A stretch of DNA of 64,000 nt from an uncultured Planctomycetota bacterium (lineage in GTDB: Bacteria > Planctomycetota > Phycisphaerae > Sedimentisphaerales > UBA12454), in assembly GCA_903847315.1 (NCBI GenBank), contig CAINDG010000036.1, positions 3,587-67,586 of the forward strand. The letters are read 5' to 3'. The notes under the pieces are model-generated. The model saw only the letters and a list, made by a program, of their open reading frames with translations, was not told the DNA's origin and searched no databases. Made by a program: the position numbers and the translations under genes. This document shows positions 1 through 22,245 of this stretch, one piece after another; the first letter of the stretch is position 1; every line of letters starts with the position of its first letter.

Positions 1-2989
1 ATCCGTTATCTGCCCAGCCGACATTTTGATATGTAGTCACAGATTTCATCTGGCTGGTCGTTAGACCTATGCCGCCGGCACTGGTTGCTTGTCCCGAAGT
101 CTCGACGTCCCAGAAACTGCTGCTAACATTGCCAGAATCGTTAAATCCCACCAGCCCGCCGACATAACTATTTCCGCTAACGGCTCCAGCAGCATAACAG
201 GCGGTAAGGTTACCATAATAATCGTATCCCACCAGTCCGCCGACATAATTATGGCCGCTGACAGTTCCCGTTCCCGTGGCGTAACATTTCTCAACGCTGC
301 CATTATTATTATATCCCACCATGCCGCCAACATTAATATTCCCAGTAACTGTACCCGTAGCATAACAAGTGATAAGGTTACCATAATAATCGTACCCAAC
401 CAGGCCGCCGATAGAATCGTTTCCGCTGACCATAGTCATGGCGTAACAGTTTTCAACGCTGCCATCATTCTCTCCCACCAAACCACCGACCGTATCATTT
501 CCAGTGACTGTTCCTGTGGCATAACAGTTCTCAATGCTGCCGTCATAATTATCTCCCGTCAAGCCGCCAATTTCATCACCTCCGCTGACTATACTTATAG
601 CATAACAGTTGGTGATAGTACTCATATTGTCCCCAACTAAACCGCCGACACTGCCTCCTCCAGTAACTGTACCAGTAGCGTAACACGCATTAATGCTGCC
701 CAAATTCTCTCCCGCCAAACCACCAATACTCCATCTATCACCTCTACCAACAACAATTCCAGCGACATAACAGTCGATGATAGTCCCATGATTTGACCCC
801 GCTAACCCGCCGACATAAGATTTGCCAACAATTCCGATATTCTCTACGCCTAAATTGCGAATCTGACTGCCGGAGCCGACATAACCGAACAGGCCAACGT
901 CATCGCTATTAGGCATATTTACGCCCGCGTTGCGAATAATATGACCGCTGCCATCGAATTCGCCGGTAAATTTTATACCGCTATTGCCAATTGGCGATAT
1001 TACTCCATCCCTGAAATCAAGGTCGTTCATCAAAATAAAATCTTTGTCCCAGAGTTCTGGATGACTGGTAAGAAACAGCCATTCGTAAACGGTTTTAATC
1101 TGATATGGGTCGGTTTCTGTACCGCTGCCGCTGCCTATCTCGTTCGGACAGGAGACGGTCAAATTTATTTTTGTAACCCCCACAGTACCGTTAGAATCTG
1201 CCGCAGGGTCTTGACTGACGACATACCCGACAGGAACGGTGTGACTGCTTATTAGGGTAAGAGAACCCATCACAAGCCCTGCATTTTTGACGGTATCTGC
1301 CGCCTCTTCAAAACTCATACCATTGACGTCAGGTACTTTGGCCGGTTTCCGGTCTTTCCACGCAAGATACGGATAGTTATTTTCAGGCATAATCCAGTCG
1401 GCGACATCACCATCAATTGTGGTAAAATCCCAGCCCGCCGATGTAAATGTAGAAAGTGTTTTCATTTGAGCAGTCGTCTTGCCTATCCCGCCGGCACTTG
1501 TTGTCCAGCCGGAAGTCTGGATATCCCAAAAAGAAGTACTGATACTACTGCTTTCAGTTTTATATCCCGCCAAACCGCCGATATAACTGTTTCCAGAAAC
1601 CGTACCAGTGGAATAACAGCTAGTGACGGAACCAGAACGAGAACTATCTCCCACTGAGCCTGCCAAACCGCCGACATAACTGTTTCCAGAGACCCTACCT
1701 GTGGCATAACAATCAGTGATAGTTCCACTATTTGATCCCACCAACCCGCCGACATAACTGTTTCCAGAAACCGTACCGGTGGAATAACAGCCAGTGATGG
1801 AGCCGGAACGATAACTATTATTTCCCATTGATCCTATTAAACCACCGACGTAGTTATTTCCGATAACCGTTCCTGTTGCGTAACAGCCGGAAATATCGTG
1901 TCCATAATTCCCGTCCCCGTAATTATATCCTACCAGCCCACCAACATAATCGTGGCCGCTGACTATTCCTGCAGCATAACAATTGGTAATAACGCCGTAT
2001 ATGTAATCCTTGAAATCTCCATGGTACACCCCTGCTAAATTCCTTCCCACTAATCCGCCGGCATAAGAGTTGCCCAAAATCGTTCCTGTCGCGTAGCAAT
2101 TACTGATATGACTGCCGCTGTTATATCCTACCAGACCACCGGTATACTGGTCACTTCCGGTAATATTGCCTGTGGCATAACAATTATCAATAGAGCCCTC
2201 TCGGCAGGAATCATCTAATATGCTATAGAACAATATATTATTCCCCACTAATCCGCCGACATAAGAATTGCCGCAAACAGTTCCTGTCGCGTAACAATCA
2301 CTGATAATGCCGCCGCTGTTATATCCTACCAAACCGCCGATACACTTAGTGCTTCCGGCAACATTGCCAGAGGCATAACACCTAGAAATATTTCCGAGAT
2401 TACTTCCCACAAGACCGCCCGTGTAACTATCGCCGGTAACTTTGTCCGTGGAAAAACAATTGCTGATAGTGCCGCGATTAGCTCCTGCTAGACCACCAAT
2501 AACGTAACCGTTAGAACTGCCGGTAACCTTACCCGTGGAAAAACAATTGCTGATGGTGGTGCCTTGAAGACTATTTCCCGCCAAACCTCCGACACAATAA
2601 TTTCCGATTATATTAACATCTGCGACACCTAAATTACGAATCTGACCGTTGGAACCAATACAGCCAAACAGACCGACGTAATTACTGTTGGGCAGATTTA
2701 TATCCGCATTGTGGATGATATGATTGTTGCCGTCAAAAACGCCGGTAAAATTAATGCTGCCATTACCTACCGGCGTTAGTGCAACGCCGGCTAAATTTAC
2801 ATCGGCTGTCATAATAAAATATTTGTTCCAATCGGCAGAAGTGGTCATCAAATTATTCCAATCGGAAACGGAGGCTATTCTGTATGGGTTGTTCGGTTCG
2901 CCGCTGCCGCCGGAGTAGGCAAAAACGGATGAAAATAGACAGGAGACAAGGCCGGTGATAACTAATACCTTGCGGTATGTATAAAACAC
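1..2989 (-). CDS. GLUG-motif repeat protein with internal PASTA-like domain, secreted; 3' end runs off the window start
   Basis: Absent from the ORF track because no stop lies inside the window. Hand translation of the minus strand from GTG 2989 (GGAGGA 8 nt upstream) stays open to position 1; frame checked at 2989, 1498 and 10. The N-terminus VFYTYRKVLVITGLVSCLFSSVFA is signal-like. Two blocks of ~23-aa repeats of form xVGGLVGxNxGxIxNCYATGxVxG each end in SSFWDxxTSGxxTSAGGxGxTTxQMK. The blocks are separated by VPDVNGMSFEEAADTVKNAGLVMGSL..VVSQDPAA (PASTA-like, ~1150-1345). Confidence 0.75.
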   Translation of the reverse strand, partial: MFYTYRKVLVITGLVSCLFSSVFAYSGGSGEPNNPYRIASVSDWNNLMTTSADWNKYFIMTADVNLAGVALTPVGNGSINFTGVFDGNNHIIHNADINLPNSNYVGLFGCIGSNGQIRNLGVADVNIIGNYCVGGLAGNSLQGTTISNCFSTGKVTGSSNGYVIGGLAGANRGTISNCFSTDKVTGDSYTGGLVGSNLGNISRCYASGNVAGSTKCIGGLVGYNSGGIISDCYATGTVCGNSYVGGLVGNNILFYSILDDSCREGSIDNCYATGNITGSDQYTGGLVGYNSGSHISNCYATGTILGNSYAGGLVGRNLAGVYHGDFKDYIYGVITNCYAAGIVSGHDYVGGLVGYNYGDGNYGHDISGCYATGTVIGNNYVGGLIGSMGNNSYRSGSITGCYSTGTVSGNSYVGGLVGSNSGTITDCYATGRVSGNSYVGGLAGSVGDSSRSGSVTSCYSTGTVSGNSYIGGLAGYKTESSSISTSFWDIQTSGWTTSAGGIGKTTAQMKTLSTFTSAGWDFTTIDGDVADWIMPENNYPYLAWKDRKPAKVPDVNGMSFEEAADTVKNAGLVMGSLTLISSHTVPVGYVVSQDPAADSNGTVGVTKINLTVSCPNEIGSGSGTETDPYQIKTVYEWLFLTSHPELWDKDFILMNDLDFRDGVISPIGNSGIKFTGEFDGSGHIIRNAGVNMPNSDDVGLFGYVGSGSQIRNLGVENIGIVGKSYVGGLAGSNHGTIIDCYVAGIVVGRGDRWSIGGLAGENLGSINACYATGTVTGGGSVGGLVGDNMSTITNCYAISIVSGGDEIGGLTGDNYDGSIENCYATGTVTGNDTVGGLVGENDGSVENCYAMTMVSGNDSIGGLVGYDYYGNLITCYATGTVTGNINVGGMVGYNNNGSVEKCYATGTGTVSGHNYVGGLVGYDYYGNLTACYAAGAVSGNSYVGGLVGFNDSGNVSSSFWDVETSGQATSAGGIGLTTSQMKSVTTYQNVGWADNG

Positions 2990-3061
2990 AATTAAGTCCT
3001 CCTGTACTCCTATAAAAACTCGACTACAACAGGATACCGTATCTATGCTAAAAATGCAAGC

Positions 3062-16151: not shown

Positions 16152-16223
16152 ATTTTTTTGAGCAGTTGAACAGGAGACCGCCCCGATAAATCGGAGCTCT
16201 CATTTTTTAGCTCTGCCAAAAAA

Positions 16224-16297
16224 TGGGCGGTACAGGACTCGGACCTGTGGCCTCCTGCTTGTAAGGCAGGCGCTCTAGCCAACTGAGCTAACCGCCC
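16224..16297 (-). tRNA. tRNA-Val (anticodon TAC)
   Basis: The minus strand GGGCGGTTAGCTCAGTTGGCTAGAGCGCCTGCCTTACAAGCAGGAGGCCACAGGTCCGAGTCCTGTACCGCCCA folds as a cloverleaf. The anticodon loop is CTTACAA. Confidence 0.9.
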
Positions 16298-16306
16298 GGT
16301 GGAAAA

Positions 16307-16379
<73 letters not shown>

Positions 16380-16456: not shown

Positions 16457-16484
16457 TTGCCAAGCCTGCCGTTGCGGTTATAAT
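16457..16484 (+). promoter_or_regulatory. near-consensus sigma70-type promoter driving tRNA-Gly (and the abutting pilin-like gene)
   Basis: TTGCCA (16457-16462), a 16-nt spacer, then a perfect TATAAT (16479-16484). The tRNA begins 12 nt downstream of the -10 element. Confidence 0.6.
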
Positions 16485-16495
16485 TATTTTGATAT

Positions 16496-16567
16496 GCGGG
16501 CGTAATTCAGTGGTAGAATGTCAGCTTCCCAAGCTGAATGCCGTGGGTTCGAATCCCATCGCCCGCT
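16496..16567 (+). tRNA. tRNA-Gly (anticodon CCC)
   Basis: GCGGGCGTAATTCAGTGGTAGAATGTCAGCTTCCCAAGCTGAATGCCGTGGGTTCGAATCCCATCGCCCGCT. The anticodon loop is TTCCCAA and no CCA is encoded. Confidence 0.9.
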
Positions 16568-16569
16568 TT

Positions 16570-17334
16570 ATGAAAAAAAATAAAGCGTTCACCCTTGTCG
16601 AGCTTCTTGTCGTTATGGCGATAATGGCGGCATTGCTCGCTATCCTTCTGCCTGCATTGACTCTTTCCCGGCAAATCGCATACAAAGTTATCTGCCTTAA
16701 TAATCTGAAACAGCTCGGCATCGCTACCCACTCCTATGTCCAGAGTTCGGAGGTCTATCCGGTCTGCGTGTCGGAAGTAAACGAAACATGGTCTGATTTC
16801 ATAGCCAATCCCGCCATCGCCAATGACAAAATGCTCGGCGTGCCGGCTTCGCTGTGGCCTTTCCATAAAAACGAAAAACTTTACAAATGTCCTGTGCTTT
16901 CCAAAATCGGCTGCGATATCAGTTATTGTTATAACTGGCAGGCGGGCAGGGAACTGGGTGCCGGCGAGACTGCTTTTGCCGGGCCTTCCGATATTCCGCC
17001 GGTACATCCGCCGAAAGTGCAGAAAACTAATCTTTATGTTCTAACTCCCGAAAAAGTAAAATCGCCCGGCCTGTTCGTACTGCTCTACGACCTGCCGCTA
17101 AAACCAGAACCTATTACCGAAGATACCGCAGGCTCAGACCTCTATAAAGACATCGACCCTGACGATTATGACAGCAGCCGAATCGACCCTAACAATCCGG
17201 GCGATTTATGGCATTACAAAGTTTTGGACGCCTTGGGCCCGCACGCCAAAGGTCAAAGCATTTTATTCGCCGATAGTCATACAAAATGGTATAAAAGATG
17301 GTCGAGTTCTGAAATGACCAGGAAACCCAATTAA
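16570..17334 (+). CDS. pilin-like protein with prepilin-type N-terminal cleavage/methylation domain (DUF1559-like pseudopilin)
   Basis: MKKNKA|[24 protein letters not shown] is a canonical prepilin leader and hydrophobic helix, and the C-terminal [12 protein letters not shown] is DUF1559-like. The track start 16489 reads through the tRNA-Gly and is rejected. Confidence 0.85.
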
Positions 17335-17489
17335 GAACAAGCACTGTCATCTTGACGCCTAAACCGGCTTTTTCTGCCAAAATTGGCAGGGCAAATCCAT
17401 CTTAAAAAAGTCATTTTTAGTTTATCTTTGTTTCATAACCATTTATTCAGCAATATGTTATAGTTTTTAGTATCTTTAGTCATAGAAAG

Positions 17490-17575: not shown

Positions 17576-19264
17576 ATGGCAGCGAAAGAGTTAGTGTTTA
17601 ATGCTGATGCAAGGGCGGCCTTGCTTGTCGGAGTAGAAAAACTGGCACGTGCGGTACGGTCGACTCTTGGCCCGCGAGGCAGAAACGCCATCATCGACAA
17701 AGGCTGGGGCAGTCCAACGGTTACAAAGGACGGCGTAACAGTCGCTGAGGAAATAGACCTCGTCGATAAGACTGAAAATATGGGCGCCAAACTTGTAAAA
17801 GAGGCGGCCAGCAAGACGAGCAAAATCGCAGGCGATGGAACTACCACCGCTACCGTTCTTACCGAGGCGATTTTCAAAGAGGCATATCGAAACATCGCGG
17901 CTGGCGCAGACCCAATGGCAATCAACAGAGGCATTGGGCAGGCGGTTGACGCTATAACGAAGGCACTTGTCAAACTCGCCAAGCCGGTTGATATCACAAA
18001 AAGAGACGACATCGAAAACATCGCCTCAATCTCAGCGAACAACGACCATGAAATCGGCAAGATTATGGCTGACGCTTTTACAAAGCTGGGCAAAGACGGC
18101 GTTATTACCGTTGAGGAAGGCAAGAGCCTTGATACGACGCTCGAATTTGTCGAGGGTATGCAATTCGACAGAGGATATCTGTCTCCCAACTTCGTAACAA
18201 ACGTCGATAATATGCTCTGCGAACTTGAGAAGCCGTATATATTAGTTTATGAAGACAAGATAAGCAGCGTTCAGAAACTTGTGCCTTTACTGGAAGCAGT
18301 CGCAAAGAGTAAAAGACCGTTGCTTATTATCGCCGATGACTTAGAGGGCGAAGCACTTGCGACGCTGGTAGTGAACAAACTTCGCGGCGTTCTGCAGATT
18401 TGTGCCGTCAAAGCACCCGGCTACGGCGACAGAAGAAAAGCAATGCTCGAGGATATCGCGGTTCTCACAGGCGCTGAGCCGATTTTCAAAGATTTGGGAA
18501 TCGAACTTAACAATATAAAACTTTCTCAGCTCGGAAGAGCCCGAAAAATCACTATTGATAACGATAATACGATAATCGTTGAAGGAGCCGGTACGCAGGA
18601 AGCAATTAACGGCAGGATAAAGGCAATCCGCAGCGAGATTGAAGCGACAACCAGCGATTACGACCGCGAAAAACTTCAGGAAAGACTTGCCAAGCTGACA
18701 GGCGGAGTGGCGCAGGTTAATGTCGGAGCCGCGACGGAATCAGAGATGAAAGAAAAGAAGGCGCGAATCGAAGATGCCCTTCACGCTACAAGAGCGGCGA
18801 TCGAGGAAGGTATCGTCCCCGGCGGGGGAGTTGCCCTGATTCGATGTATCGATACGGTTAAAAAACTTAAACTCAGCGGCGATGAGAAAACAGGCGCCGA
18901 TATTATTGCACACGCCCTTAAAATGCCTTGCTACTATATCGCAGAAAACGCTGGCGCTGTCGGCAACCTGGTCGTAAATAAAATTTCTGAAGGCAAGGAC
19001 GGATTCGGCTACAACGCTGATACCGATAAATTCGAAGATCTCATCAAGGCCGGCGTTATCGACCCTGTAAAGGTAACAAGAATCGCGTTGCAGAATGCCG
19101 CTTCAGTTGCGGGACTGCTGCTAACCTGCGATTGCGTTGTTACTGAAAAACCGCAAAAAGAAAAAGCCGGCGCAGGAATGCCGCCGGGCGGCATGGGCGG
19201 AATGGGTGGCATGGGTGGTATGGGTATGGGCGGCATGGGTGGTATGGACGATATGGGAATGTAA
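17576..19264 (+). CDS. groEL: chaperonin GroEL, copy 1 (with Gly-Gly-Met tail)
   Basis: 562 aa with [30 protein letters not shown] and [11 protein letters not shown]. The C-terminus is [27 protein letters not shown]. Confidence 0.97.
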
Positions 19265-20307
19265 TGAAAATGATGAACTGTAAAACAAAACGAAAAGTAA
19301 AATTTGCCAAAGGGCAATACCTTATTGCTCTTTTGGCTTTGTTTTTGTTTAACTCTCTTTCATTTGCCGTACAAGACCCAAACGGAGAGCAAAAGTTTTC
19401 TGTTGAGCAAACGAAAAAATTCGAAGAGAATTTACAGAGTTCATTCTCCGGCATTGGAACAGGAATCGAAATTAATCCAAAAGGAATTTACATCAAAAAT
19501 GTTATTCCCGGCGGACCTGCAGAAAAAGCAGGATTAAAAGGCGGCGAAATAATTACCGAAATTGATGGCAAATCCACGACAGGAATGTCTTTGGAAAAAG
19601 CAGTTTCAATGCTTAAAGGACCAACAGGCACAAGTGTTAATCTCAAACTGCTTTTAAGCAATGGGACCGCTCAGGAAATCAGCATTGTTCGGGGACCAGT
19701 ATCTGTCTCAGGTGTAGACAGCCGTGTTATAGAGCCAAATATAGGTTTGCTCGTTATCTCTGGTTTTAAGAATGAATCGGCCGCAAAGGTTAAAGATGCA
19801 CTTTTAAATTTTCAGCAAAAGAAAATTAAAGGTTTGATTCTCGATATTCGCAACAACAAGGGCGGTTTTCTACCAGAAGTCAAAAAAATTACCGGTTTTT
19901 TTCTTGAGCCAAACGAAATAATGTGGCAGACACAAAACATTGGTCAAAATGAACGTATATCGGTAAAAAGTAATAGTAGGAAAATATCACAATGGCCGAT
20001 AGTAGTGCTTATTAATTCGGAGACGATGTGCGGTGGAGAATTGTTAGCTTCGGCTGTGAAGTCTAAAGGCGGGGCTAAGCTTCTCGGTCAGAAAACATTT
20101 GGCGAAGGCTCTTTTTATAAATTTGAAAAACAAGATGATGGCACGAGTAAAAAAGTCCGGATGGGATATTTCTTTACCGCAGATGGACAAGATCTTGAAG
20201 GTAAGGGTGTCATTCCGGATATTGAGATAGACCCAAAACTTTCAACAGAGGAAATTATCAAAAAAGCAGTTAATGAATTAACTAAAAATAACGTAAATAA
20301 AACATAA
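19264..20307 (+). CDS. exported PDZ domain / S41 (C-terminal processing peptidase)-like protein with substituted catalytic dyad
   Basis: The start overlaps the groEL-1 stop (TAATG). The signal peptide is YLIALLALFLFNSLSFA and the PDZ region is GIGTGIEINPKGIYIKNVIPGGPAEKAGLKGGEIITEIDG. The S41 core is LILDIRNNKGGFL and VVLINSETMCGGELLASAV..GQKTFGEG. Cys256 and Glu281 occupy the positions where S41 enzymes carry Ser and Lys. Confidence 0.8.
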   Translation: MKMMNCKTKRKVKFAKGQYLIALLALFLFNSLSFAVQDPNGEQKFSVEQTKKFEENLQSSFSGIGTGIEINPKGIYIKNVIPGGPAEKAGLKGGEIITEIDGKSTTGMSLEKAVSMLKGPTGTSVNLKLLLSNGTAQEISIVRGPVSVSGVDSRVIEPNIGLLVISGFKNESAAKVKDALLNFQQKKIKGLILDIRNNKGGFLPEVKKITGFFLEPNEIMWQTQNIGQNERISVKSNSRKISQWPIVVLINSETMCGGELLASAVKSKGGAKLLGQKTFGEGSFYKFEKQDDGTSKKVRMGYFFTADGQDLEGKGVIPDIEIDPKLSTEEIIKKAVNELTKNNVNKT

Positions 20308-20326
20308 GCAATAAGGAGTTAAAAAA

Positions 20327-20617
20327 ATGAAACTTAGACCTTTGGATGACAGAATTATTGTGAAGCCCGAAGAGGCGGAAGAAAAAACAGCGGGCGGAAT
20401 CGTTCTGCCGGACGCCGCAAAGGAAAAACCATTGATGGGTAAAGTTATAGCAGTAGGGCCGGGCAAACTCTTAGACAGCGGCAAGCGTGCAGAAGTCGCC
20501 GTTAAGAAAAACGACACCGTACTGTTCGCAAAGTACGGCGGAAACGACATAAAGATTGACGGCGTTGAATACAAAATTCTTCACGAGAGCGATATTCTCG
20601 GCATAGTAGAGAAGTGA
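20327..20617 (+). CDS. groES: co-chaperonin GroES
   Basis: 96 aa with MKLRPLDDRIIVKP..EKTAGGIVLPD..GKVIAVGPG. Confidence 0.97.
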   Translation: MKLRPLDDRIIVKPEEAEEKTAGGIVLPDAAKEKPLMGKVIAVGPGKLLDSGKRAEVAVKKNDTVLFAKYGGNDIKIDGVEYKILHESDILGIVEK

Positions 20618-20625
20618 GGTAAAAA

Positions 20626-22245
20626 ATGGCAAAACAAATGATGTTTGATGATGCGGCAAGGTCACACCTGAAACAGGGACTTGCCAGTCTGGCAGCGGCG
20701 GTTAAGGTAACTCTGGGCCCGACGGGCAAAAACGTTATGCTGTATAAAAGTTACGGCTCGCCGAAGATAACCAAAGACGGCGTATCGGTCAGCAAGGAAA
20801 TCGAGTTGCCTGAGCCGTTCAAGAATATGGGCGCCAAAATGGTTAACCAGGCCGCAACCAAGACGAGCGATGTCGTTGGCGACGGCACTACTACCGCGAC
20901 GGTTCTGGCTGAAGCGATTTATAACGAAGGGCTAAAAAATGTAGCGGCAGGCGCTAATCCGATGGCTGTCAAACGCGGCATCGATAAGGCTGTGCAGATT
21001 GTTGTTGATTTTATCGCTTCGCAAAGCAAAAAAGTCAAAGGACACGATGACATTGCTAAAGTCGCCACCATAAGCGCGAATAACGATTCGGAAGTCGGCG
21101 AAATTCTCGCCGATGCGATGGATAAAGTCGGCAAGGAAGGCGTTATCGAGGTTGAGGAAGGCAAAAGTCTTGTAACCGAGCTTGAAGTCGTAAAAGGAAT
21201 GCAGTTCGACCGCGGCTATATATCGCCTTACTTCATAACAAATACCAGCACGATGGAAGCTGTTCTTGAGGACGCTTACATTCTGCTGTATGAAAAGAAA
21301 ATTTCGAGCATTGCTGAAATTATTCCGCTTCTGGAAAAAATCGCTCAGGTCGGTTCCCAATTGCTCATAGTCGCTGAAGAAGTCGAGGGCGAGGCTCTGG
21401 CTGCTTTGGTTATAAATAAACTTCAGGGCGTTTTGAAGGTTTGCACCGTAAAGGCTCCCGGCTTTGGCGACAGAAGAAAAGCTATGCTCGGCGATATAGG
21501 CGTTCTTACCGGCGGACAGGTGCTTACAGAGGACCTGGGCATAAAACTTGAGAAAGTCGAACTGTCACAACTCGGAAAGGCAAAAAAAATTGTTATCGAA
21601 AAGGAAAACACGACGATAATCGAAGGAGCGGGCACAAAGAAAGACATAACCGCCCGCTGCGAACAGATACGCAAACAAGTTGAAGCGACTACCAGCGATT
21701 ATGACCGCGAGAAGCTGCAGGAACGATTGGCAAAACTGACCGGCGGCGTAGCGGTAATAAAAGCAGGCGCTTCGACTGAAACGGAAATGAAGGAAAGAAA
21801 AGACCTTCTCGACGACGCTCTGCACGCGACCAAAGCGGCTATGGAAGAGGGCGTCATCCCCGGCGGCGGAGTTATCTATCTGCGGGCTATCGAAAAAGTC
21901 CGACAGGCAAAGACAAAGACGAGCGAAGATGAAAAAATCGGTTTTGATATTATCGCCAGCGCCTTAAAATCGCCGACGAAACAAATAGTCGACAACGGCG
22001 ACGAAGACGGCGATGTGGTTGTCGAAAAGTTGCTCGAGCAGAGCGGAAATACAGGCTATGACGCCAACAGCGGCAAGTTTGTCGATATGGTTGAGGCGGG
22101 CATTCTCGACCCGGCTAAGGTCGCAAGATGCGCCCTGCAAAATGCCGCTTCGGTTGCAGGTCTTATGCTGACTACCAATGTGCTTATCACCGACCTGAAA
22201 GACGATGATAAGGATAAACCGCAAATAGAAGGTTCAGTGCGGTAA
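20626..22245 (+). CDS. groEL: chaperonin GroEL, copy 2 (no GGM tail)
   Basis: 539 aa with [28 protein letters not shown] and [11 protein letters not shown]. The C-terminus is the charged [16 protein letters not shown] rather than GGM repeats. Confidence 0.97.

Follow-up and report, generated by a model that had tools for sequence, protein, structure and literature searches.

The stretch of DNA analyzed here, called the window throughout, comprises 64,000 nucleotides (nt) from an uncultured Planctomycetota bacterium of the Sedimentisphaerales (assembly GCA_903847315.1, contig CAINDG010000036.1). In this window, a tRNA-Gly(CCC) gene is followed after two nucleotides by the start codon of a gene for a prepilin-type protein; a promoter-like site lies directly upstream of the tRNA and groEL lies downstream of the pilin-like gene (Table 1). 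The junction reads ...GGGTTCGAATCCCATCGCCCGC-T(16567), then TT, then ATG AAA AAA AAT AAA GCG and, past the predicted prepilin cleavage point, TTC ACC CTT GTC GAG. As developed below, tRNA and gene are probably transcribed together, and the cut that matures the 3' end of the tRNA may at the same time release an almost leaderless mRNA. A preliminary description of this locus had placed the end of the tRNA at 16567, the start of the gene at ATG 16570 with only TT in between, and a near-consensus promoter at 16457-16484, directly 5' of the tRNA. These claims held on closer analysis. The boundaries given by ARAGORN and the alignment of the discriminator by Rfam agree on the end of the tRNA, and reading of the sequence confirms that the two spacer nucleotides leave no room for a promoter or a Shine-Dalgarno site. 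The promoter scan scored the upstream site at 11/12, and ATG 16570 is the sole start codon between the end of the tRNA and the cleavage site, that is, the codon of F7.

We first consider the tRNA itself. It scored 72.4 bits against the RF00005 model (gathering score 29), whose alignment puts U16567 in the place of the discriminator, and ARAGORN located the anticodon ccc at position 33. Across 11 loci, the 21 stem pairs of the cloverleaf were standard in every sequence (231 of 231 stem positions paired, 100%), and three pairs of the T-stem showed compensatory changes on both sides, with the variants GTGGG/CCCAT, GACGG/CCGTT, GGCGG/CCGCT, GAGAG/CTCTT and GCCGG/CCGGT. The covariation score was reached by none of 500 shuffles, and shifting the pairing register lowered the pairing to 33-50%. 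Since all stem positions pair and three pairs have changed in a compensatory manner, we regard this tRNA-Gly(CCC) as a functional gene and not as a relic.

The promoter-like site upstream of the tRNA was the best of 7 such sites in 1.8 kb, for which shuffled sequences gave 2.2 +/- 1.8. From the geometry of E. coli promoters, transcription is predicted to start at about 16491, approximately 5 nt 5' of the tRNA. Identical hexamers with identical spacing were observed 5' of the tRNA-Gly in L029, L036 and L063 (L numbers denote orthologous loci), and sites matching at 10-11/12 in L035, L001 and L037; overall, a site of 10-11/12 preceded the tRNA in 7 of the 11 loci examined, at a distance of 11-21 nt. 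We observed no terminator-like site between 15900 and 17700, hence none between the pilin-like gene and groEL.

The protein encoded next to the tRNA matched PF07963 (N_methyl) with 33.6 bits (cut-off 21.2) and TIGR02532 with 25.3 bits (cut-off 16.3), both over residues 1-27. Its N-terminus MKKNKA/FTLVELLVV is a complete prepilin cleavage and methylation motif, with Ala at position -1 (A or G among the orthologues), and the product is predicted to be cleaved after MKKNKA by a prepilin peptidase. The DUF1559 profile (PF07596) reached 22.3 bits on the window protein, against a cut-off of 23.3, and over residues 39-75 only; for most orthologues, a PF07596 match has been precomputed, and at JGI they bear the name H-X9-DG proteins. 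At the C-terminus, the window protein has the motif H-X9-DS, the consensus in most orthologues being ...ILFADGH, and TIGR04294 was not among its NCBIfam matches at E <= 0.1. No further prepilin genes were found within the window. About 60 orthologues with 42-66% identity were recovered from metagenome-assembled genomes of Phycisphaerae/Sedimentisphaerales. Among the loci with a 2-nt junction, the ratio of nonsynonymous to synonymous substitution rates (dN/dS) was 0.15-0.31, which denotes purifying selection. The pilin-like gene could have been a decayed fragment, as the preliminary description had considered; its intact homologues and this dN/dS range speak against it, and we conclude from the sequences that it is no such fragment.

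The position of the start codon deserves particular attention, since the frame of the pilin-like open reading frame (ORF) is open back to TTG 16489. The true start could accordingly be sought inside the tRNA, at GTG 16510 or TTG 16489, with a leader peptide of 26-33 amino acids (aa), and databases do carry a 274-aa form (P0001) together with the extended proteins P0020, P0010 and P0003. We consider such a start hardly credible. The N-terminal extension is merely translated tRNA-Gly, and the extension in L036 uses another frame of the tRNA. In the tRNA-less orthologues L003 and L045, an in-frame stop codon lies 2-5 codons 5' of the homologous ATG, which marks the 6-aa leader as genuine, and the alignment shows a short basic leader, M-K/R-K/R-x-x-G/A, common to all orthologues. 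A start inside the tRNA was rejected on these grounds: translated tRNA, stops in tRNA-less orthologues and a conserved leader. Because gene callers run the gene into the tRNA, public databases contain false N-terminal extensions: P0001, P0020, P0010 and P0003 carry 20-50 additional aa, of which the tRNA-derived part is translated tRNA-Gly. The exact 254-aa protein is not on record in the databases, only the tRNA-extended form of 274 aa.

To place the junction in a comparative frame, we gathered orthologous loci from three sources: genomes taken one per species, JGI metagenomes searched with an alignment that omitted the generic N-terminus, and contigs encoding individual database proteins. The loci were scanned for tRNAs and the spacers were then measured. 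As presented in Table 1, an intact tRNA-Gly(CCC) lies directly 5' of the gene in 12 distinct loci including the window, and in a thirteenth, L041, the tRNA is cut by the end of the contig. The preliminary description had proposed looking for the junction in relatives, and the arrangement T-TT-ATG does recur, in five distinct loci. These five represent three deep lineages of Phycisphaerae, between which protein identity is 57-65% and synonymous divergence (dS) is 1.3-2.1, that is, saturated. In a neighbour-joining tree of the orthologues, loci with the 2-nt junction stand on both sides of the midpoint root, and for this reason the 2-nt junction is probably ancestral and the longer spacers derived, by parsimony. 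In L051, the downstream neighbour is not groEL but a different gene, so the linkage between tRNA and pilin-like gene is independent of the wider gene order; the N-terminus of the protein encoded there (L051 2409-3413) looks DUF262-like (...VVDGQQR...) when judged by eye.

Table 1. Features around the tRNA-Gly(CCC)/pilin-like gene junction of the window, and state of the junction in orthologous loci.
Feature	Position or locus	Strand	Remarks
tRNA-Gly, anticodon CCC	16496-16567	+	Discriminator U16567; no encoded CCA; ARAGORN, Rfam RF00005
Sigma-70-type promoter-like site, TTGCCA-16 nt-TATAAT	16457-16484	+	11/12 match
TT spacer	16568-16569	+	Entire tRNA 3' trailer; predicted mRNA 5' leader after cleavage
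Gene for 254-aa prepilin-type protein	16570-17334 (stop included)	+	Putative member of the DUF1559 / H-X9-DG family
ATG and prepilin leader MKKNKA	16570-16587	+	Predicted prepilin-peptidase cut A6/F7 (16587/16588)
tRNA-Val(TAC) and tRNA-Phe(GAA), divergent	16224-16379 (tRNA-Val 16224-16297, tRNA-Phe 16307-16379)	-	Part of conserved block
groEL	17576-19264	+	Own AAGGAG Shine-Dalgarno site; 241 nt 3' of pilin-like gene
Spacer 2 nt, always TT	Window, L029, L042, L063, L051 (= L052)		
Spacer 4 nt to ATG, or 64 nt to TTG	L002		From the ATG, frame runs through a 60-nt in-frame extension
Spacer 16 nt	L041		
Spacer 22 nt	L036, L050		
Spacer 23 nt	L001		
Spacer 37 nt	L037 (= L044)		
Spacer 45 nt	L039 (= L062)		
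Spacer 23, 47 or 71 nt	L035		Start ambiguous
Only 3' half of tRNA 5' of gene	L005/L043, L046-48, L060		Three lineages
No tRNA 5' of gene	L003, L004, L006 (with L056/L057), L040, L045, L053, L054, L061		
No tRNA in the short upstream stretch examined	L038, L049		

Two further observations concern the spacer. By hand tally, the two bases right before the start codon are TT in 17 of 26 distinct orthologous loci, long-spacer and tRNA-less ones among them, compared to 6 of 49 long ORFs of the window. The loci are not phylogenetically independent, and the TT may either be left over from the ancestral junction or reflect a preferred context for starts. In the two loci with a 22-nt spacer (L036 385-406 and L050 76-97), the tRNA is followed by TTTTTGTTTTTT and TTTTTAATATTT, respectively, which look terminator-like together with the acceptor stem; a GGGA, similar to a weak Shine-Dalgarno site, then lies 9 nt 5' of the ATG. 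This spacer may mark a transition away from the tight junction and towards a leader of the conventional kind.

The recurrence of the 2-nt junction might also be a tolerated accident, in which a spacer offering very little room for mutation persists as a neutral relic, the gene is weakly or occasionally expressed and the junction has no function. At least seven lineages have altered the spacer or lost the tRNA yet kept the gene, and the protein belongs to a family with very many paralogues (7231 matches), both as expected of such an accident. We nevertheless find this explanation improbable, because the purifying selection described above was measured in exactly the lineages with the 2-nt junction, because the N-terminal FTLVELLVV is conserved and the frame stays open through insertions, and because TT precedes the ATG far more often in the orthologous loci than in the genes of the window.

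The spacer measures at most 45 nt in 12 of the 13 tRNA-linked loci, L035 being ambiguous (23-71 nt), and all are too short for a separate promoter. Since these short spacers hold no promoter, a promoter-like site lies 5' of the tRNA and the scan gave none inside it at a threshold of 9/12, co-transcription of the tRNA-Gly and the pilin-like gene is a strong inference. The preliminary description had favoured co-transcription as the simplest reading; the 13 tRNA-linked loci and their upstream promoter-like sites lend it strong comparative support, at the level of sequence. A promoter inside the tRNA gene, which would make the 3' part of the tRNA the leader of the mRNA, appears more improbable still than a tolerated accident. 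The D-arm does contain TAGAAT, matching the -10 consensus at 5/6 positions, with a TTGATA 19 nt 5' of it (by eye), and about half of the genes here start without a Shine-Dalgarno site. However, TAGAAT is universal tRNA D-arm sequence, the 19-nt spacing falls outside the usual 16-18 nt, and TTGATA is not conserved, its place being taken by CCAGGT in L029 and L063; moreover, no -10-like hexamer is placed to start transcription at the ATG. The pair TTGATA-19-TAGAAT was rejected as a promoter for its wrong spacing, its lack of conservation and the absence of a scan hit inside the tRNA.

Starting from the upstream promoter, a single transcript would thus contain tRNA-Gly(CCC) and the prepilin-like gene and possibly continue towards groEL. 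RNase P would trim the 5' leader of about 5 nt off the tRNA, and an RNase Z-type cut at or just after discriminator U16567 would be followed by CCA addition. Because no CCA is encoded, the 3' end of the tRNA must come from a cut at or just after this position. The same cut would make the 5' end of the mRNA, 5'-P-UUAUGAAAAAAAAU..., with a predicted leader of 2 nt if cleavage occurs after U16567. The resulting 5'-UUAUG end would be read from AUG 16570 by a 5'-end-dependent, leaderless-type initiation without a Shine-Dalgarno site, and the product would be a prepilin cut after MKKNKA. We put the probability of this reading, that is, co-transcription, RNase Z-type cleavage after the discriminator and leaderless-type translation together, at roughly 0.55; the cleavage site, the enzyme and the mode of initiation are all inferred.

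Several features of the junction are compatible with this reading. On precursors without CCA, RNase Z cleaves immediately 3' of the discriminator, and cytidines at the first positions of the trailer inhibit it (PMC7479834). A UU trailer with no C at +1 or +2 and no CCA is compatible with such a cut, and the trailers of all four tRNAs of the window begin with TT, all four lacking an encoded CCA. As for initiation, AUG, weak structure and the lack of a Shine-Dalgarno site favour the leaderless type (bioRxiv 10.1101/2020.05.06.081141). The start codon is ATG in all five loci with a 2-nt junction, where the first 50 nt fold with -2.3 to -5.8 kcal/mol, no better than shuffles, and the last 18 nt of the tRNA-Gly offered no Shine-Dalgarno pairing (duplex energy +0.1 kcal/mol). 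A hairpin at the start codon was also noticed: when the precursor is folded for minimum free energy, CGCUUUAU is paired with AUAAAGCG, which would hide the AUG. Within 16560-16592 of the window, codons 4-6 (ATAAAGCG) are exactly complementary, in reverse, to CGCTTTAT, which covers the tRNA 3' end, the spacer and the first two bases of the ATG. This pairing is retained in L051 with one G-U pair. We treated the hairpin as chance, because L029, L042 and L063 lack it and because its formation would be in competition with the acceptor stem of the tRNA.

A number of points weigh against the proposed release and leaderless-type translation. A 5'-monophosphate end normally speeds the decay of an mRNA. 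The lack of a Shine-Dalgarno site is not distinctive here, a duplex of <= -5 kcal/mol being present in only 23 of 49 long ORFs of the window, compared to 10 of 49 internal control positions. Most orthologues have left the 2-nt state: their spacers measure 16-71 nt, in some cases with a GGGA or AAGG motif, or they retain half a tRNA or have a promoter of their own. The 2-nt arrangement is therefore viable but not required. The spacer is also a tiny mutational target, changeable by insertion only, and insertions into it occurred repeatedly in other lineages; given the size of this target, retention of 2 nt is weak evidence of selection. Among orthologues without tRNA, the promoter matches of L003, L045 and L038 reach only 9/12 of the consensus, and the scan of the + strand found no promoter-like site in L004, L006 and L054. 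In Caulobacter, leaderless initiation is roughly halved per added nucleotide, and the fit 0.45 x i^-0.91 gives about 0.24 at i = 2, about a quarter of the maximum; in E. coli, a single extra nucleotide is already inhibitory (bioRxiv 10.1101/2020.05.06.081141). Finally, the RNase Z of B. subtilis in vitro also cut 5-6 nt past the discriminator, in about half of the products (PMC7479834), and a cut at that distance would here remove the AUG.

This last result bears on a further explanation, in which tRNA and mRNA are mutually exclusive fates of one precursor. The two genes would be co-transcribed, on the same evidence as above, but the 3' end of the tRNA would be matured by a cut inside the coding sequence and exonuclease trimming, which destroys the mRNA; protein would come only from a minority of unprocessed precursors, or when processing is slow. 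Besides the displaced cuts in B. subtilis, some bacteria lack RNase Z, such as P. acnes (PMC3848588), and the many lineages with a widened spacer could be escaping such a conflict. We judge this course unlikely, although less so than an accident or an internal promoter. From the geometry of the initiation complex, the space that the ribosome needs 5' of the start codon would be taken up by a folded tRNA whose end is only 3 nt away from the AUG, which makes translation of the unprocessed precursor seem unlikely. In mitochondria, one report ties unprocessed precursors to poorer translation (bioRxiv 10.64898/2026.07.30.741833). In addition, purifying selection acts on the gene in the lineages with a 2-nt junction, and the UU trailer suits a cut right after the discriminator (PMC7479834).

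Orthologues in which the junction has been disrupted inform on how the gene is initiated. The frame from the tRNA-proximal ATG stays open past insertions in the leader codons of L002 (60 nt) and of L001 and L037 (elements resembling miniature inverted-repeat transposable elements, MITE-like), which suggests that initiation is anchored next to the tRNA. In L002, the stretch (2941-3000) separates the tRNA-proximal ATG from the canonical leader and consists of repeats of ACACGGATTTACAC-like units; the gene would have a 26-aa leader or else a TTG start. The MITE-like element, of about 100-130 nt, was observed at L037 1255-1372 (= L044), L001 1806-1911 and L049 1228-1370. It interrupts precisely the codons GGG-TTT-ACC at the prepilin cleavage site, duplicates the G/FT motif and has terminal inverted repeats of 17-22 nt (GGGTTTACCCCCGCACCAATTT / AAATTGGTGAGGGGGTTTACCC). 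The frame is open through the element in all variants, with predicted leaders of 42-61 aa (P0022, P0029, P0040, P0043, P0048, P0052).

In L003, L045 and L038, where no tRNA was detected 5' of the gene, a TTGTTA-16/17-TGnTAAAAT site ends 10, 9 and 11 nt before the ATG, respectively, predicting leaders of 3-5 nt. Because of these predicted leaders, the gene seems able to work almost leaderless however its 5' end is made, although this is suggestive only. A promoter close to the ATG was not retained as a general rule for tRNA-less orthologues, since it fits these three loci only; the promoter-like site of L040 ends 39 nt before the ATG, and the match in L053 overlaps the coding start.

The half-tRNA remnants were located at about L005 2866-2920 (= L043), upstream of 1327 in L046-L048 and at about L060 406-450. 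They run from the anticodon stem, starting with AGCTTCCCAAGCT, to the 3' end of the tRNA-Gly(CCC), with an identical breakpoint in the three lineages. This is the pattern left by an element that integrates into a tRNA gene and displaces the original 3' half. No integrase was observed in the available flanks of the remnants, which contain a PAS histidine kinase 5' in L005 and a transposase-like fragment in L046 (by eye, without a family search). A scan of viral contigs for a tRNA 3' end followed by TTATGAA returned nothing. An origin of the junction from a phage or mobile element was set aside on these two results, the empty viral-contig scan and the lack of an integrase 5' of the half-tRNAs.

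Around the junction, the arrangement of tRNA-Phe, tRNA-Val and a nitroreductase gene on the other strand is syntenic in L029, L030, L036 and L042. Between tRNA-Val and the nitroreductase gene lie 72 nt (16152-16223, - strand), with a run of six T directly after the tRNA, and the nitroreductase gene has no Shine-Dalgarno site (+1.0 kcal/mol); the three genes could be a second tRNA-mRNA co-transcript. On the other side, the gene directly 3' of the orthologue is groEL in 16 or more of the examined loci, tRNA-less ones included. The gap between the pilin-like gene and groEL contains a perfect 16-bp palindrome, CTGCCAAAATTGGCAG, at 17374-17389, which is not CIRCE and has no T run after it; it may be a protein-binding site. 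The chaperonin cluster (17576-22245) has an unusual order: a groEL that ends in a GGM-repeat tail comes first, followed by a PDZ/S41 peptidase gene, groES and another groEL. The ATG of the peptidase gene shares one base with the stop codon of the first groEL, and the peptidase is missing in L035, L061 and L063.

The closest parallel to the junction is the tRNA punctuation of mitochondria, a model said to have been put forward originally by Ojala and colleagues in 1981. In both systems, the tRNA abuts the start codon (with 0-3 nt in between), one promoter lies upstream and no CCA is encoded; in both, here by prediction, the 3' cut of the tRNA makes the 5' end of an mRNA without a Shine-Dalgarno site. 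In animal mitochondria, RNase P and RNase Z/ELAC2 excise tRNAs from polycistronic precursors and free leaderless mRNAs (PMC5716156; bioRxiv 10.64898/2026.07.30.741833). By contrast, we describe one such junction only, in a bacterium that is free-living and has ordinary ribosomes, whereas mitochondrial punctuation is genome-wide and served by specialised mitoribosomes; here, moreover, relatives readily abandon the tight junction, and processing is predicted from sequence. It is a tentative proposal, to which we give somewhat less than an even chance, that a free-living lineage of uncultured Phycisphaerae uses mitochondrial-style punctuation. The RNase Z cut would then be obligatory for obtaining a near-leaderless mRNA with a 5'-monophosphate from which the pilin-like protein can be translated; the arrangement would have persisted since the common ancestor of these lineages, and production of the protein would be coupled one-to-one to tRNA maturation.

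Other systems share individual features with the junction. In E. coli, the tRNA genes and the protein gene of thrU-tyrU-glyT-thrT-tufB share a promoter and are separated by RNA processing, and the spacer before tufB exceeds 100 nt and holds a normal ribosome-binding site. The promoter would be shared here likewise, but the spacer is 2 nt and there is no ribosome-binding site. Plant mitochondrial t-elements and tRNA-like elements of Haloferax are also cut by RNase P and RNase Z to set the 5' and 3' ends of mRNAs (PMC1920247; PMC4946936). These are mostly non-functional tRNA mimics and their mRNAs keep leaders, in contrast with the genuine, conserved tRNA-Gly and predicted 2-nt leader described here.

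Leaderless mRNAs in the strict definition have their 5' end at the start codon (0 nt), although some authors allow up to 5-10 nt. In the bacterial cases (lambda cI, mycobacteria, Deinococcus, Streptomyces), transcription starts at the start codon (PMC4633059, PMC4007540, PMC4681348, bioRxiv 10.1101/2020.05.06.081141). They resemble the mRNA proposed here in that the AUG stands at the 5' end or close to it, the Shine-Dalgarno site is missing and the 5' end is unstructured, but they have primary triphosphate ends (PMC4633059, PMC4007540), unlike the processed monophosphate end with two extra nucleotides predicted here. The tRNA-less L003, L045 and L038 may belong to this classical class. Leaderless mRNAs made after transcription by an endonuclease, as in our proposal, have been ascribed to MazF in E. 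coli (Vesper et al. 2011, as cited in PMC4681348 and PMC3848588). Cleavage by MazF, a stress toxin, yields a 5'-OH end, and the model is debated; the cut proposed here would be a constitutive, housekeeping step of tRNA maturation leaving a 5'-phosphate. A literature search, which was not exhaustive, returned no described case of a bacterial leaderless mRNA made by tRNA processing.

At a practical level, entries for this gene in public protein databases have false, tRNA-derived N-termini. The series of orthologues, from 2-nt junctions through 16-71 nt spacers, in some of which weak Shine-Dalgarno-like motifs occur, to half-tRNAs and ATG-proximal promoters, constitutes a comparative set for how initiation mechanisms interconvert. 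If the proposed reading is true, ordinary 3' processing of a tRNA would, in a bacterium, give rise to an mRNA 5' end that can be translated, a principle so far tied to mitochondria and plant organelles, and this mRNA would be a natural bacterial leaderless mRNA arising from housekeeping RNA processing and not from promoter placement. The junction would then provide a natural substrate for asking whether bacterial ribosomes initiate on processed, 5'-monophosphate mRNAs with very short leaders, and for studying the interplay of tRNA maturation and mRNA fate on one precursor.

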